A stretch of 64,000 bases of DNA from a virus. Positions within the stretch are counted from its first letter, which is position 1. Each line of letters opens with the position of its first letter. The position numbers and the translations under genes are program-made. The notes below the pieces were generated by a model. The model saw nothing but the letters and a program-made list of their open reading frames with translations. It did no database searches and was not told the DNA's origin. This document shows, piece by piece, positions 12,086-53,559 of the stretch. The stretch lies in the IMG/VR virus record IMGVR_UViG_3300043178_000025. The stretch is one strand, 5' to 3'.

Positions 12086-12297
12086 CGCACGACTACATCA
12101 AGGCGCTCCGTCCCATCCGGGAACCGCTCTACGACACGGCCCCGATAAAGGTCCCGAAGAAGCTCGACTTCTTCGAGTTCAGGATGACGCGGAAGGTCTG
12201 GAGGACGTGGGCAAAGCGGCTTCACATTCCGCCGCTCATGGTCAGGTGTGGCATGACGGCGTTCGCCGCCGTCATTCGCTGTCGGAGAACGAAGTGA
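12082..12297 (+). CDS. hypothetical protein
   Basis: GTGA overlaps on both sides. Confidence 0.5.
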   Translation: MTHDYIKALRPIREPLYDTAPIKVPKKLDFFEFRMTRKVWRTWAKRLHIPPLMVRCGMTAFAAVIRCRRTK

Positions 12298-12737
12298 AAC
12301 GCTGGTACATCACGCAGGTACGGACCCGGAAGGCCGACGGGGACGAGCGCGAAGAGATGGGCCTTCCAAGGTATTCGTCCAAGCGCAGCCCCGAGGTCTT
12401 CATTGAGTGGACGGAGTACATGAACGTCCTCTCGCATCTCTGGCATCTGGAGCATCTCTTCGCGACCGCGTTTCGGTCCAAGAAGGACGCGCTGCGCGGA
12501 CTGGATAGGGTTCGCAACGTCATCGAGAACGAGTGCGTCACGCTGACTCTCATGGGGAAGAGCGACGAGGCATACAGGGTGAAGCTCGTTCCCGAGGACG
12601 CGACGCCGATGCGGGTTCCGAAGGACTGGCCGAAGAACCGGAGGAAAATCCCGGAGCGGCGATTCTTCAAGCCGAACCGCTGGCCGTACAGCAAGGACAA
12701 GGCGAAGGGGCGGCGTGAAGCCGTCGATGCAGAGTGA
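12294..12737 (+). CDS. hypothetical protein, weak family A similarity
   Basis: WYITQV..ATAFRSKKDAL. Confidence 0.6.
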   Translation: MKRWYITQVRTRKADGDEREEMGLPRYSSKRSPEVFIEWTEYMNVLSHLWHLEHLFATAFRSKKDALRGLDRVRNVIENECVTLTLMGKSDEAYRVKLVPEDATPMRVPKDWPKNRRKIPERRFFKPNRWPYSKDKAKGRREAVDAE

Positions 12738-13453
12738 AGGACTGGTCCAAGGCCGACGTGAAGGGCTTCTTCGACGAGTACCGCTTCCTGAGCAACTTCT
12801 GGCCCTGTGAGGTGGACTTGGACGGGGTGAAGTACCCATCAACGGAGCACGCTTATCAGGCCGCGAAGACCCTGAATCCAACCGAGCGCGAAGCGATCCG
12901 TGTCGCGGAGAAGCCGGGTAAGGCGAAGCGTCTCGGCAAGGCCGTGAAAGTACGCGACGACTGGGACCTCGTGAAGGTCCGCGTCATGAAGGACCTCGTC
13001 ACGCAGAAGTTCCAGACGTTCCCGCTCAAGGAACAGCTTCTGGGGACGGGAATAAAGGTCCTTGTCGAAGCGAACTCGTGGGGCGACCGCTTCTGGGGTG
13101 CGACGTGGGATCGTGACGGGAAGGTCCTTGTAGGCACGAATGCCCTTGGCGTGATTCTGATGCAAGTGCGTGACGACCTGCGACGCGCTCTTCCGATGCC
13201 GCAGGGCTGGCGTATTCGGAGGAGCCAGAAGGTCGTCAGCGATGAATCCTTCGCTGCCCTGTTCGCGAAGGCGGGCAGCGAGACTGAGGAGGACGTGCGG
13301 TCCTTCGTTACGTTCTGGCGACGCGAGGATACGACGTGGGCGATGCAGGGAATGGATGCGACCTGCTACGAGACCAAGGAGGAGGCAGAGAAGGACGCCT
13401 TTCTCCTTGCGACACAGCATCCGGAGTCGAACATCGACGTGGTGAGGTGGTGA
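12734..13453 (+). CDS. NADAR (YbiA-like) protein fused to a family A domain
   Basis: FLSNFWP..YPSTEHAYQAAK, LVEANSWGDRFWG, NALGVILMQVR; C-terminal CYETKEEAEKDAFLLA..HP. Confidence 0.92.
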   Translation: MKDWSKADVKGFFDEYRFLSNFWPCEVDLDGVKYPSTEHAYQAAKTLNPTEREAIRVAEKPGKAKRLGKAVKVRDDWDLVKVRVMKDLVTQKFQTFPLKEQLLGTGIKVLVEANSWGDRFWGATWDRDGKVLVGTNALGVILMQVRDDLRRALPMPQGWRIRRSQKVVSDESFAALFAKAGSETEEDVRSFVTFWRREDTTWAMQGMDATCYETKEEAEKDAFLLATQHPESNIDVVRW

Positions 13454-13791
13454 TGCCTGCGACGCGGGAGGAACTGGAGCGCAAAATCGCCGCACAGCAG
13501 GACGCTCTGGAGTTCGCGATCAACGCGGCGCAGGCAGCGAGGAGGATCATCGACCTCTACGTGCCGCACGAGATGAGAAAGCTCCGGGAGTTCACGCAAC
13601 TCTACGTCATCGTCGAGTCCGTGGCAAAACAGGACGGGTTCACGGGGCCCCGTATCGCGGCCTACGCGCATCGTTGCGGAATGCTTGAGGCTGCGGAGAT
13701 CGCGGAGCAGGTCGCGAAACGTAGTGGTCACGAAGAATGGAGAGCGGGAGCTAAAGCGGCAGCGGAAGAGATCGCAGGTAAGGTTATGTAG
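13453..13791 (+). CDS. hypothetical protein
   Basis: TGATG coupling; helical 112-aa ORF. Confidence 0.65.
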   Translation: MPATREELERKIAAQQDALEFAINAAQAARRIIDLYVPHEMRKLREFTQLYVIVESVAKQDGFTGPRIAAYAHRCGMLEAAEIAEQVAKRSGHEEWRAGAKAAAEEIAGKVM

Positions 13792-13925
13792 GCTACGCTA
13801 TCTTTATTTCGATTTAGGTAGTGTCAGCTTAGGTTGTTTTAGCTCATGTTCCGTTCGGTTCGGTTCGGTTCCATTCGGTTCGGTCCGTTAGAGTGTCCTT
13901 CGCTAAGGTTCACTTCTATTTTTTT
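13776..13925 (+). ncRNA. period-5 array upstream of the Cas7-like gene (candidate guide RNA)
   Basis: T at every 5th base from 13779 to 13924 (30/30); 10 of the 30 triplets ending on that T are GGT; includes (TTCGG)n. Confidence 0.75.
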
Positions 13926-13937
13926 TTAGGAGGTCGC

Positions 13938-14549
13938 ATGTCTACGGCAGTTGCATCGAGTCGTGTCGTGAACCGTCTGCTTCGCGTGAACGTCACCATC
14001 AAGGGTGTGACGCCCATGCTGCTCAATCGTCCGACACAGGAGCAGCTTCTGAAGATTCGGGAGAAGGAGAGATCGCCGAAGGGTGCGCCGAACGTGACGC
14101 CCCGTGAGGAGTGCGATGGAAAGGTCTACAAGGACGCAGATGGGAAGCTCTATCTTCCCGCTCACATGCTCTACGCCTGTCTCGTGAAGGCGGGACAGTT
14201 CGTGCGTCTCGATGGAAAGCGTCAGATCAGCACGGCCACGTCTACGGTGCTCCCGGCTTTCATGACCATCGACGACAAGGTCATGAAGCTGACGACGCCG
14301 GGATGGGAAGTGGACATCGCGCCCGGCAAGAACAAGGCTGGGGAGATGATTCCGCTGGTGCGGCCTCGCTTCGACGAGTGGAGCTTCAACGTGCGTGTCA
14401 CCATCGACACGCGGGAAATCGCGGAGCAGAAGATGAGGGAACTCTTCGACATCGCTGGAAAGCGGTGTGGGATGGGGTCGAATCGCCCGAACTGCAAAGG
14501 CTTTTACGGGCAGTTCGTGGTGGACTGCTGGGAGCATCTGACGGACTAG
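13938..14549 (+). CDS. stand-alone Cas7/RAMP-superfamily protein
   Basis: AGGAGG RBS; VTIKGVTPMLLNR, YLPAHMLYACLVKAG, RPRFDEWSF, and C-terminal Gly-rich loop AGKRCGMGSNRP..GFYGQFVV. Confidence 0.8.
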   Translation: MSTAVASSRVVNRLLRVNVTIKGVTPMLLNRPTQEQLLKIREKERSPKGAPNVTPREECDGKVYKDADGKLYLPAHMLYACLVKAGQFVRLDGKRQISTATSTVLPAFMTIDDKVMKLTTPGWEVDIAPGKNKAGEMIPLVRPRFDEWSFNVRVTIDTREIAEQKMRELFDIAGKRCGMGSNRPNCKGFYGQFVVDCWEHLTD

Positions 14550-14553
14550 CAGG

Positions 14554-14766
14554 TGTAAGCTCAGGTCACGTTACCTAGAGTTACGTACTGCGCTGCGAGG
14601 TAGGGTGCATTTGCATCAGGTACGTTCGGCTGACCTCGATTCTCGTCGCGTGTGCTGCTTTGGCGTTGAGTTGTGTAGTTTCAACTGACATCCCTTCGAC
14701 TGGCGTTTCGTCGCGTGTGCTGCTTTGGCGTTGAGTTGCGTAATTTTAAGTTACCTAGGTCGGTCT
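14554..14766 (+). ncRNA. period-5 array downstream of the Cas7-like gene (candidate guide RNA)
   Basis: Pyrimidine at every 5th base from 14556 to 14766 (43/43: 40 T, 3 C); 31-bp internal duplication offset by 65 bp. Confidence 0.78.
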
Positions 14767-15492
14767 ATGGGAAAAGGTAAAAGACCCGACGATCTAACCA
14801 TTAAGATCGTTGAGAAGGCCATCGGGATTCCGGCGCAAAAGTGGCATGGAAAGTGTTTCGAGATTTCCTGCCGGATCGTTCGGGCGAAGCTCGTCAACGG
14901 CGTCGCCGTGTACGGGCACTACAGGGGTTCCGTGGCGACGACGGGTTTCTGGGCTGAGAGGCGGGGGCAACTCTTCCAGCGCCACGGATGGATCGTGCTT
15001 GACGAAGCGAACGACGGACGCTACCTCGACCCGACGCTCTGGAGTTTCGAGGACAAGGAGCCGTACCTTCACATCCACGACTGTTCGCTGCACGAGTACC
15101 TCTGCACCTGCGATCACGTTACGGACGAGCATGAGTCCGGGTTCCTGTCGGCCTGTACGATCTGTGGGTGCTGCTCCTACGAGAACAAGAAGTGCGACTA
15201 CGACGAGGGCGGCAACATGCTCCGCGAGACCATGCTCATGCCCCCGCCGCCGTTCAGCAAGGAGGACCCTGTCGAGGAACTTCCCGTGCGCGGCGACGCG
15301 AAAGGCTTCGTCATGACTGCGCTCGGAAATCCGAAGGCGATTACGAGACCGATGCTCTTCTGGCTGGCGAACCTGCCCGTGAGGAAGCTCGGGCCTTACG
15401 CGCCGGACGTGTACAAGGCCCTCATCGAGCATGGAGACGACGCTCTCATCCCCATCGACAACAGGCGCATGGTTCTGGGGACCTATGGCTAA
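14767..15492 (+). CDS. hypothetical protein, possible transglutaminase/papain-like Cys-His-Asp fold
   Basis: KCFEIS..RHGWIV..YLDPT; start moved to ATG 14767 because the upstream TTG lies inside the array. Confidence 0.55.
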   Translation: MGKGKRPDDLTIKIVEKAIGIPAQKWHGKCFEISCRIVRAKLVNGVAVYGHYRGSVATTGFWAERRGQLFQRHGWIVLDEANDGRYLDPTLWSFEDKEPYLHIHDCSLHEYLCTCDHVTDEHESGFLSACTICGCCSYENKKCDYDEGGNMLRETMLMPPPPFSKEDPVEELPVRGDAKGFVMTALGNPKAITRPMLFWLANLPVRKLGPYAPDVYKALIEHGDDALIPIDNRRMVLGTYG

Positions 15493-18911: not shown

Positions 18912-19057
18912 ACGAACCGCCGCCTGTGAACAGGACTCCGAACAAGTGCCCCGTGTGCGGCGGCACGGCTGCGGAGGGGGAGTTCGTCGGGGAGAACACG
19001 GTCGAGGTCGAGTGTAACGAGTGCGGCCACAAGTGGCGGCAGTACATTCCGGATTGA
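18908..19057 (+). CDS. small zinc-ribbon protein
   Basis: CPVCGG..CNECGHKW; read by hand, GTGA overlap. Confidence 0.6.
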   Translation: MNEPPPVNRTPNKCPVCGGTAAEGEFVGENTVEVECNECGHKWRQYIPD

Positions 19058-19075
19058 GAAAGTCGAGGTGATGGC

Positions 19076-19291
19076 GTGGCGAAGACGGTCGTGTTCACGG
19101 TCATCTACGCGGTCGAGCCCGGGCAACTGCTCGAAGGCGTCGAAGAGCCGCTGGAGCGCCTGCGTGAGTACGGCGCGGCGGAAGTGGTTGACGTGAGGGT
19201 CTTCGATGGGCCGCTGGAGAAGCTCAAGATCGCCAGCATGGGCGAAGAGGCGATTGCGAAAGCGGTGAAGCTGGACGTTCGCAAGGCGTAG
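19076..19291 (+). CDS. hypothetical protein
   Basis: 71-aa ORF with GAGG RBS. Confidence 0.6.
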   Translation: MAKTVVFTVIYAVEPGQLLEGVEEPLERLREYGAAEVVDVRVFDGPLEKLKIASMGEEAIAKAVKLDVRKA

Positions 19292-53274: not shown

Positions 53275-53559
53275 GATTTCTAGGCGCACCCCCGAGACTG
53301 TACCTGCCGTCGCAGCGATCTGCTGGGCGAATTCTGCCGACACCTCTACCTGTAGAGACGCGGGCGTCGCAAGAGCTTACACGAATTCTGCCGACACCCC
53401 CATCTATAGAGTCGGACCGTCACGAAAAGATGACGCGAATTCTGCCGACACCTCTCAAGACGTTCCAGCGTTACACCGCGAGTTCGACAGAATTCTGCCG
53501 ACACCCCACCCTGTACTCGCAACAGACGGGCCATGCGAACCACGAATTCCGGCTGGAAA
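53275..53559 (+). repeat. 54-bp-period array with 16-bp core GAATTCTGCCGACACC
   Basis: Exact cores at 53329, 53383, 53437, 53490; degenerate in-phase copies at 53275 and 53544. Confidence 0.9.

Follow-up and report, generated by a model that had tools for sequence, protein, structure and literature searches.

The DNA stretch IMGVR_UViG_3300043178_000025, a high-GC phage-like element from a freshwater metagenome, was analysed over its whole length of 64,000 nucleotides (nt), hereafter called the window. All coordinates refer to this stretch and to its plus strand. The locus under study comprises a gene for a protein of 203 amino acids (aa) at 13938–14549 (+), its ribosome-binding site (RBS) AGGAGG at 13928–13933 (+) and two pentanucleotide arrays on the same strand. 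The upstream array (13779–13928, +) consists of 30 units of the form T-NN-xx and reaches the RBS; the downstream array (14556–14770, +) consists of 43 units in one register. The protein is a minimal RAMP of the Vipr family, and its gene is referred to below as vipr. The locus is very probably a stand-alone Viral Interference Programmable Repeat (VIPR) locus on a phage-like element, whose arrays, both candidate vrRNA regions, would yield vrRNAs that are coated by Vipr and serve as gapped guides silencing a competitor.

Both arrays follow a strict period of five nucleotides. In the upstream array, T occupies each fifth base from 13779 to 13924 (30/30), and in the downstream array each fifth base from 14556 to 14766 is a pyrimidine (43/43; 40 T and 3 C), with an unbroken stretch of 32 T at 14601–14756. 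The recount reproduced the figures given in an earlier annotation of this DNA, hereafter the original prediction. Pooled over both arrays, the periodic site is a pyrimidine in all 73 units, T in 70 of them and C in 3. The T content is 17.9% across the window and about 30% and 19% in the other four phases of the upstream and downstream array, respectively. Chance is excluded, because even at the overall T content of the upstream array the probability of such a run is 0.44^30, or about 2e-11. No period-5 run of at least seven T was found in the 64 kb outside the two arrays. Other period-5 runs of pyrimidines or purines (at 12212, 18971, 24791, 53693 and 62985) were rejected as arrays, being composition-driven coding sequence without the T/G pattern; the run at 18971–19081, with 23 purines at period five, is an example.

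The units were numbered from the periodic T as position 0, so that positions 1–2 form the NN dinucleotide, position 3 is the G1 site and position 4 is the G2 site. No constraint was seen at positions 1–2 across the 73 units. G is present at position 3 in 26 of them (36%), which is the background level, and position 4 has G in 36 (49%), C in 17, T in 15 and A in 5. In the upstream array alone, G is found in 15/30 and 14/30 units at positions 3 and 4. These counts agree with the earlier statement that about half of the triplets read xGY while the dinucleotides vary freely. The array consensus is related to the canonical YNNGG repeat of VIPR but is not identical to it, as the GG part is degenerate (36% and 49%).

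The arrays adjoin the gene on both sides. The downstream array begins 6 nt past the end of vipr and runs as far as the following gene, whose ATG (14767) falls within the last array unit; on the other side, the upstream array passes directly into the RBS. Both arrays had been predicted to abut the gene and to be intergenic; they do abut it, but the start of the upstream array overlaps the final 13 nt of the open reading frame (ORF) at 13336–13791, so this array is not entirely intergenic. Similarly, the run of nine T (T9, 13919–13927) described as separating the upstream array from the RBS is present, yet it is part of the last two units of the array. Within the upstream array, a low-complexity segment, (GTTCG)x7 at 13848–13884 (+), repeats the same NN dinucleotide, TC. 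The downstream array carries a 47-nt duplication, with copies at 14643–14689 and 14708–14754 (+), which are 89% identical and match exactly over the first 31 nt. The copies are in phase with the array at an offset of 65 nt, or 13 units, which possibly corresponds to the length of a single guide unit.

The vipr ORF is intact and encodes an RRM core, a thumb hairpin at about residues 124–145 and a glycine-rich loop (G-loop) at residues 178–192. All 14 invariant columns of the family are kept, including R142/P143/R144/F145, G178, R183 and P184. The product had no match in Pfam and none among GenBank phages with tblastn; it matched PHROG 4652, a group of unknown function, with an E-value of 3.7e-18, and 110 homologs were found, all of them unnamed. 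A profile of 40 homologs matched chain D of PDB entry 36pp, annotated as "SUSP1 Vipr protein", over residues 18–203 (E = 5e-8), and this was the only solved protein matched. The single vipr sequence hit the same chain with an E-value of 0.003, with the thumb and G-loop aligned.

The AlphaFold2 model of the product (pLDDT 92, pTM 0.85) was compared with known and predicted structures using Foldseek. In the PDB, the best matches were Csm3/Cas7-type backbone subunits of CRISPR types III and VII (E from 1e-6 to 1e-5, template modelling (TM) score about 0.55), which confirmed as a fold the RAMP/Cas7 pattern that had been recognised in the sequence. In the clustered AlphaFold database, the top match was X1U2U4 (E = 8e-14, TM 0.76/0.86), and ranks 1, 2, 3, 5 and 6 were occupied by X1U2U4, A0A0F9A1L0, A0A661D0E2, A0A1F4YLN4 and A0A2D6XG06, with CRISPR Cmr6/Csm3 models ranking below these five. 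The same five accessions are the founding hits named in the VIPR discovery preprint (bioRxiv 10.64898/2026.04.26.720920, 10.64898/2026.04.26.720927). All five founders are thus among the top six structural matches, and together with the match to the SUSP1 Vipr profile this identifies the protein as a Vipr.

VIPR was first described in 2026 preprints, which give the following picture (10.64898/2026.04.26.720920, 10.64898/2026.04.26.720927). Vipr is a minimal RAMP of about 20 kDa that binds vrRNAs consisting of 9–16 YNNGG repeats followed by a tail, with one protomer per repeat, and two neighbouring protomers sequester each GGY. In Escherichia phage SUSP1, H17 and D177 recognise G1, R138 and W178 recognise G2, and the pocket for Y excludes purines. 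The NN dinucleotides pair with double-stranded DNA (dsDNA), one target base per unit being skipped, and the complex silences the transcription of competing phages and satellites. The arrays flanking the SUSP1 gene yield discrete trans-acting vrRNAs. Seven VIPR types are distinguished, of which some include vap accessory genes and others stand alone, and the alternative repeats NNNGG, YNNNG and NNNNG are listed, YNNNG being mentioned in the first preprint. SUSP1 itself represents type II, with Vipr, vap1 and vrRNAs (10.64898/2026.04.26.720920, 10.64898/2026.04.26.720927, 10.64898/2026.10.15.759431; PDB 36pp). A later preprint adds further non-canonical clusters, WGT/NN, TGH/NN, GAC/NN and CAC/NN (10.64898/2026.10.21.760802). 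VIPR is a very recent example of RNA-guided, gapped-code recognition of dsDNA and a proposed ancestor of the CRISPR RAMPs. As VIPR has already been published, the locus is not a new kind of system. The original prediction of a non-CRISPR RNA-guided system therefore stands in its first part and not in the suggestion of novelty, while the likeness to VIPR loci that it pointed out is upheld by the homology to Vipr, by the founder structures and by the same flanks in homologous loci.

The flanks were compared in 116 loci encoding homologs, which comprised 20 loci from IMG/VR, 15 from metagenome-assembled genomes (MAGs) in GTDB, 80 from metagenomes and the window; relatives are labelled L with a number. 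Period-5 pyrimidine runs of at least 12 units flank the gene on its own strand in 101 of the 116 loci, and runs of at least 14 units in 92. In equal amounts of sequence farther away, taken as a control, the counts of such runs were at chance level only. The check for periodic flanks in homologous loci, as proposed with the prediction, thus gave a positive answer. Among 74 unique loci with enough flanking sequence, a downstream array was present in 57, an upstream array in 33 and both in 25. The MAGs with homologs belong mostly to Patescibacteria, and also to Planctomycetaceae, Gammaproteobacteria and Terriglobales. Many of the homologs on GTDB MAG contigs (L021–L035) are found in Patescibacteria of the Candidate Phyla Radiation (CPR), on contigs of up to 857 kb; such long contigs suggest prophage or chromosomal copies in these ultra-small bacteria.

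This distribution bears on the idea that the period of five is a feature of the DNA itself without a role for RNA (phased binding sites or the shape of the DNA, for instance), or that vipr encodes a stray Cas7 belonging to a CRISPR system located elsewhere. The resemblance of the fold to Csm3, Cmr4 and Cmr6 fits a stray Cas7, and the fact that no RNA run is listed for the locus fits a DNA-level feature. Against this, the periodic base is a pyrimidine, never a purine, and always on the strand of the gene in about 100 loci; the founder Viprs are closer in structure than any CRISPR RAMP; the scans showed no CRISPR array in the window and no cas gene among about 35 ORFs; and a period of 5 bp differs from the helical repeat of DNA. 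Such an explanation is hardly credible.

The content of the arrays varies between relatives in the manner expected of guides. The Viprs of L001 and L002 are 96% identical and the leader before their upstream arrays is conserved, but the arrays agree almost solely at the periodic positions. The conserved form of the arrays is thus combined with hypervariable content, for which L382 and L383 are a second example. The leader, of about 45 nt (L001:529–574, L002:2400–2460), ends in CACGAGTTTTAAGG directly before the hypervariable upstream arrays and could be a promoter, a start site of transcription or a 5′ handle. The closest relatives of the window locus, L382 and L383, have 68–69% protein identity and several arrays each. 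Arrays at L382:715–960, L383:1045–1400 and L002:3159–3280 end in TTTTC-TA(C/A)GG, which often forms a small hairpin and precedes a spacer rich in U or A (A/T-rich in the DNA). On this sequence pattern, TTTTC-TA(C/A)GG is a candidate signal for vrRNA ends in the clade. The ends of the window arrays resemble it only loosely (T9-AGG and TTTTAAG...CCTAGG), the exact form being absent. The downstream array of L001 terminates in a clear intrinsic terminator.

The position of the arrays could also point to a role in cis, in which Vipr would bind the leader and trailer of its own mRNA and autoregulate its translation or stability, instead of or besides using trans-acting guides. Arrays lie close to the gene, the median distance being 6 nt after the stop codon and 28 nt on the upstream side; the last upstream unit in the window is contiguous with the RBS, and in L001, L002 and L037 the RBS lies within or next to the last unit; and no separate promoter was found. 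However, the flanking arrays of SUSP1 give discrete trans-acting vrRNAs, an upstream array is present in only 33 of the 74 loci, and cis-regulation does not require hypervariable array content between close relatives. A mainly cis-acting function is therefore quite improbable.

The preferred reading, that of a VIPR locus with trans-acting guides, assumes the following course of events. Both arrays would be transcribed on the plus strand, probably in the same transcript as vipr, to give vrRNAs. As in the solved complex of the homologous SUSP1 protein, protomers of Vipr would polymerise on a vrRNA, one for each 5-nt unit, and sequester the scaffold bases, which here would be essentially U alone, with a weak preference for G/C just before it. 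The two bases after each U would remain exposed as a gapped guide, which would pair with dsDNA, every third target base being skipped, and this pairing would silence the transcription of a competing mobile element. As far as sequence allows, the analysis thus supports the proposal, made with the original prediction, of a Cas7-like coat on array RNA at 5 nt per subunit carrying a gapped guide.

The folding of the arrays was examined in the same context. The downstream array folds worse than dinucleotide shuffles, both in full (z = +1.86) and in each of its two duplicated segments of 65 nt (z = +1.4 and +1.6), which fits a single strand meant for protein coating. At 13889–13927 (+), just before the RBS, a weak stem-loop (−7.9 kcal/mol, z = −1.67) is followed by T9. 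A consensus terminator scan did not pick up this element, but it is terminator-like and may be a leaky terminator or the 3′ end of the upstream vrRNA. The arrays are likely co-transcribed with the surrounding plus-strand genes. Searches of the locus and of the whole window against Rfam returned no hammerhead or other family besides one tRNA, and no ribozyme.

Several results weigh against the preferred reading. Over its first 14 units or so, the upstream array folds into a long, imperfect, G-U-rich hairpin at 13776–13844 (+; −22.4 kcal/mol, z = −4.05; 0/200 shuffles fold as well), a stable structure unlike a protein-coated single strand, although T is still kept every 5 nt. This hairpin could be a site of processing, a structured 5′ element or handle, or a terminator for the gene upstream. 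Next to the arrays, no promoter of the sigma-70 kind was found. Neither vrRNA boundaries nor a conserved 3′ tail could be defined from the window sequence: the arrays show no non-periodic tail between guides of the structured kind that characterises type II, only the weak hairpin and T9 ending the upstream array. The sequencing runs containing the locus amount to one DNA run, from a freshwater metagenome. The homo-trimer prediction for the vipr product scored 0.29 against a mark of 0.42, which in itself is evidence neither way. Finally, no target conforming to the 1-nt-skip rule was found in the window, in 121 Vipr loci or in six seed scans of IMG/VR.

The target searches covered several sequence sets. 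Within the window, both strands were searched with 12-unit guide windows and skips of 0–3 nt, and possible self-targets were rejected, since the maximum of 17–18/24 under every rule corresponded to the background. Across the 121 Vipr loci, about 0.47 Mb of sequence, every skip rule peaked at 19/24. In IMG/VR, with 1-nt skipping, a seed of 9 units had 0 matches, whereas three seeds of 7 units and two of 8 units had 71, 78, more than 117, 24 and 8 matches, whose extension into neighbouring units was at the random level of 25%. L389, the best candidate at 26/32, was rejected: it lies in a phage of 64% AT, the skipped bases are off the wobble positions and the p-value after multiple testing is about 0.04–0.4. 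Searching the window with the guides of relatives gave a slight excess for skip 1, which was traced to one low-complexity guide. The gapped NN search of phage sequences suggested with the prediction thus found nothing above other skip rules or random extension; these negatives are weak, as the seeds demanded 7–9 perfect units and the matches of one scan are a lower bound (>117). The guide code in the clade of the window may differ from the published rule.

The degeneracy of the scaffold was placed in context by comparing G frequencies in 64 unique loci with at least 20 units each. The clade medians are 0.48 for G1, 0.71 for G2 and 0.90 for G+C at G2; the respective values for the window are 0.36, 0.49 and 0.73, the fourth lowest of 64 on both G2 measures. 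The clade as a whole is therefore of the YNNNG kind. The triplet had been called more degenerate than in VIPR, perhaps marking a distinct variant; the degeneracy is real, but it is mostly clade-wide, with the window at its weak end (rank 4/64) rather than by itself. Other loci with weak G2, L032, L026 and L034, are comparable to the window. The preference for T or C at the pyrimidine site ranges from 0 to 1 between lineages.

The residues that read the scaffold in SUSP1 were located in the window protein by alignment. N30, R142, S181, N182 and R183 of the window correspond to H17, R138, D177, W178 and R179 of SUSP1, respectively. The residue equivalent to W178 is aromatic in 63 of 64 loci, and Asn is found in the window only. 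The residue equivalent to D177 is D or E in 52 loci, with a median G1 of 0.48, and G, S or A in 11 loci, with a median G1 of 0.22 (Mann–Whitney p = 2e-6, uncorrected for phylogeny, the 11 loci representing about five lineages). Lineages without the Asp include L095, L098 and L100–L103, with the G-loop GLGGFRP, as well as L017–L020, L027, L029 and L032; their G1 values of 0.06–0.38 are at or below background. This covariation supports the view that the G-loop contacts of SUSP1 would hold in the distant clade of the window. Ser181 and Asn182 stand at the positions reading G1 and G2, which fits the weak GG of the window repeats, and the pyrimidine pocket appears intact, because the periodic site holds 70 T and 3 C in 73 units. 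The covariation thus also supports a window protein that would have given up reading both Gs while keeping the pyrimidine pocket.

The same features could be those of a decaying or inactive VIPR relic, in which weak GG and the Ser/Asn G-loop reflect lost function and the arrays are no longer loaded as guides. G1 at background and G2 at only 49%, the replacement of both G-reading residues, including an Asn unique among the 64 loci, and target searches without a match would all be consistent with decay. Yet the ORF is intact with all 14 invariant columns; T in 70 and a pyrimidine in 73 of 73 units needs ongoing selection; the downstream array still avoids structure; and G2 is equally weak in L032, L026 and L034. 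A relic is therefore improbable, though somewhat less so than a cis-acting role. For the functional VIPR locus, a more far-reaching possibility, speculative and rather unlikely, is that a re-tuned Vipr reads U alone and leaves 3–4 of 5 RNA bases free, so that the guide code could differ from NN with a 1-nt skip, by an extra paired base, another skip or looser loading of RNA; more generally, the G-loop pair would act as a predictable switch of vrRNA scaffold specificity throughout the family.

The window locus is a natural extreme, in which the pyrimidine alone is fixed and both GG-reading residues of the G-loop are substituted. The link between Asp and G1 across the family offers a simple, testable rule for the way in which Vipr specifies its RNA scaffold, and the window Vipr is a candidate with relaxed scaffold needs, which would matter for the engineering of VIPR guides. 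What the present analysis adds, as a modest novelty, is the degenerate scaffold, the G-loop with Ser and Asn, and the covariation of Asp with G1 across the family.

The gene content of the window is phage-like and includes a SNF2-type helicase, two ParB-like proteins, a NADAR-domain protein, a primase, an HNH endonuclease, a DNA methyltransferase, a serine recombinase, ThyX and a tRNA. A megablast search of 25 kb of the window against phages gave no match. Scans of the 64 kb found no CRISPR repeat family and no CRISPR-like tandem array, and no cas gene was seen among about 35 ORFs, a check that was not exhaustive; within this scope the absence of cas genes and CRISPR arrays stated earlier is confirmed. 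The NADAR-domain gene (12734–13453, +; Pfam E = 7.7e-29), which is ADP-ribose-related, lies two genes upstream of vipr. A tandem repeat with a period of 54 nt and 2.4 copies according to Tandem Repeats Finder (TRF) is located at 53328–53455, where the gene strands appear to switch.

The gene following vipr (14767–15492, +; 241 aa) starts on the last unit of the downstream array and is probably co-transcribed. Its product had no match in Pfam or PHROG and shows no DNA-binding, nuclease or helicase signature. A weak structural likeness to transglutaminase-like Cys-His-Asp cores (TM 0.30–0.36) was noted, as well as the pattern GKCFEIS...HGWIV...LDPT followed by a Cys-rich segment. The gene probably lies outside the system, not being conserved beside vipr in relatives. 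No neighbouring gene was conserved beside vipr among 21 loci, and the clade can therefore be described as stand-alone and lacking vap; at the window locus, too, no vap accessory gene was found, either by neighbour conservation over these 21 loci or by a fitting signature in the 241-aa gene. This does not exclude membership in VIPR, because the discovery preprint itself describes stand-alone vipr genes.

Among known systems, class 1 CRISPR-Cas combines Cas7 with Cas5/Cas8 or Cas10/Cas6 and a CRISPR array and has a register of 6 nt, and the window locus does not belong to it. The vipr product shares the RAMP fold, RRM core, thumb and glycine-rich loop with the Cas7 proteins of types III and VII (Csm3, Cmr4 and type VII Cas7), as well as the binding of one subunit per fixed RNA register. 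It differs from them in a register of 5 nt rather than 6 nt and in the lack of a CRISPR RNA (crRNA) repeat handle, of Cas10, Cas5, Cas6 and Cas11 partners and of a CRISPR array in the window; in addition, the published target of VIPR is dsDNA recognised by gapped pairing. The founder Viprs are the top structural matches (TM up to 0.76/0.86) and are likewise stand-alone genes or parts of simple operons outside CRISPR, although the window protein is only 15–21% identical to them in a comparison made by protein alone.

The non-canonical VIPR repeats also form period-5 arrays associated with a Vipr-like fold and have a partly degenerate GGY, and the clade of the window fits YNNNG. In the window, however, both Gs are weak and T alone is fixed, a consensus that does not appear in the text of either preprint. 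Compared with SUSP1, the window protein has about 20% identity or less, the vap gene is lacking, and GG is present at 36% and 49%, in contrast to the invariant GG of SUSP1. Ser replaces D177, Asn replaces W178 and Asn replaces H17, and the arrays run on without a break for 30 and 43 units, no structured tail of about 40 nt being recognisable between guides. The two loci nevertheless have in common a homologous protein with R142 (R138 in SUSP1), R183 (R179) and the RPxF thumb motif, coding-strand arrays before and after the gene in which every fifth base is a pyrimidine, and a phage context free of CRISPR arrays. With the window locus, VIPR gains a member that stands alone, lacks vap and comes from a high-GC, phage-like element of freshwater origin.

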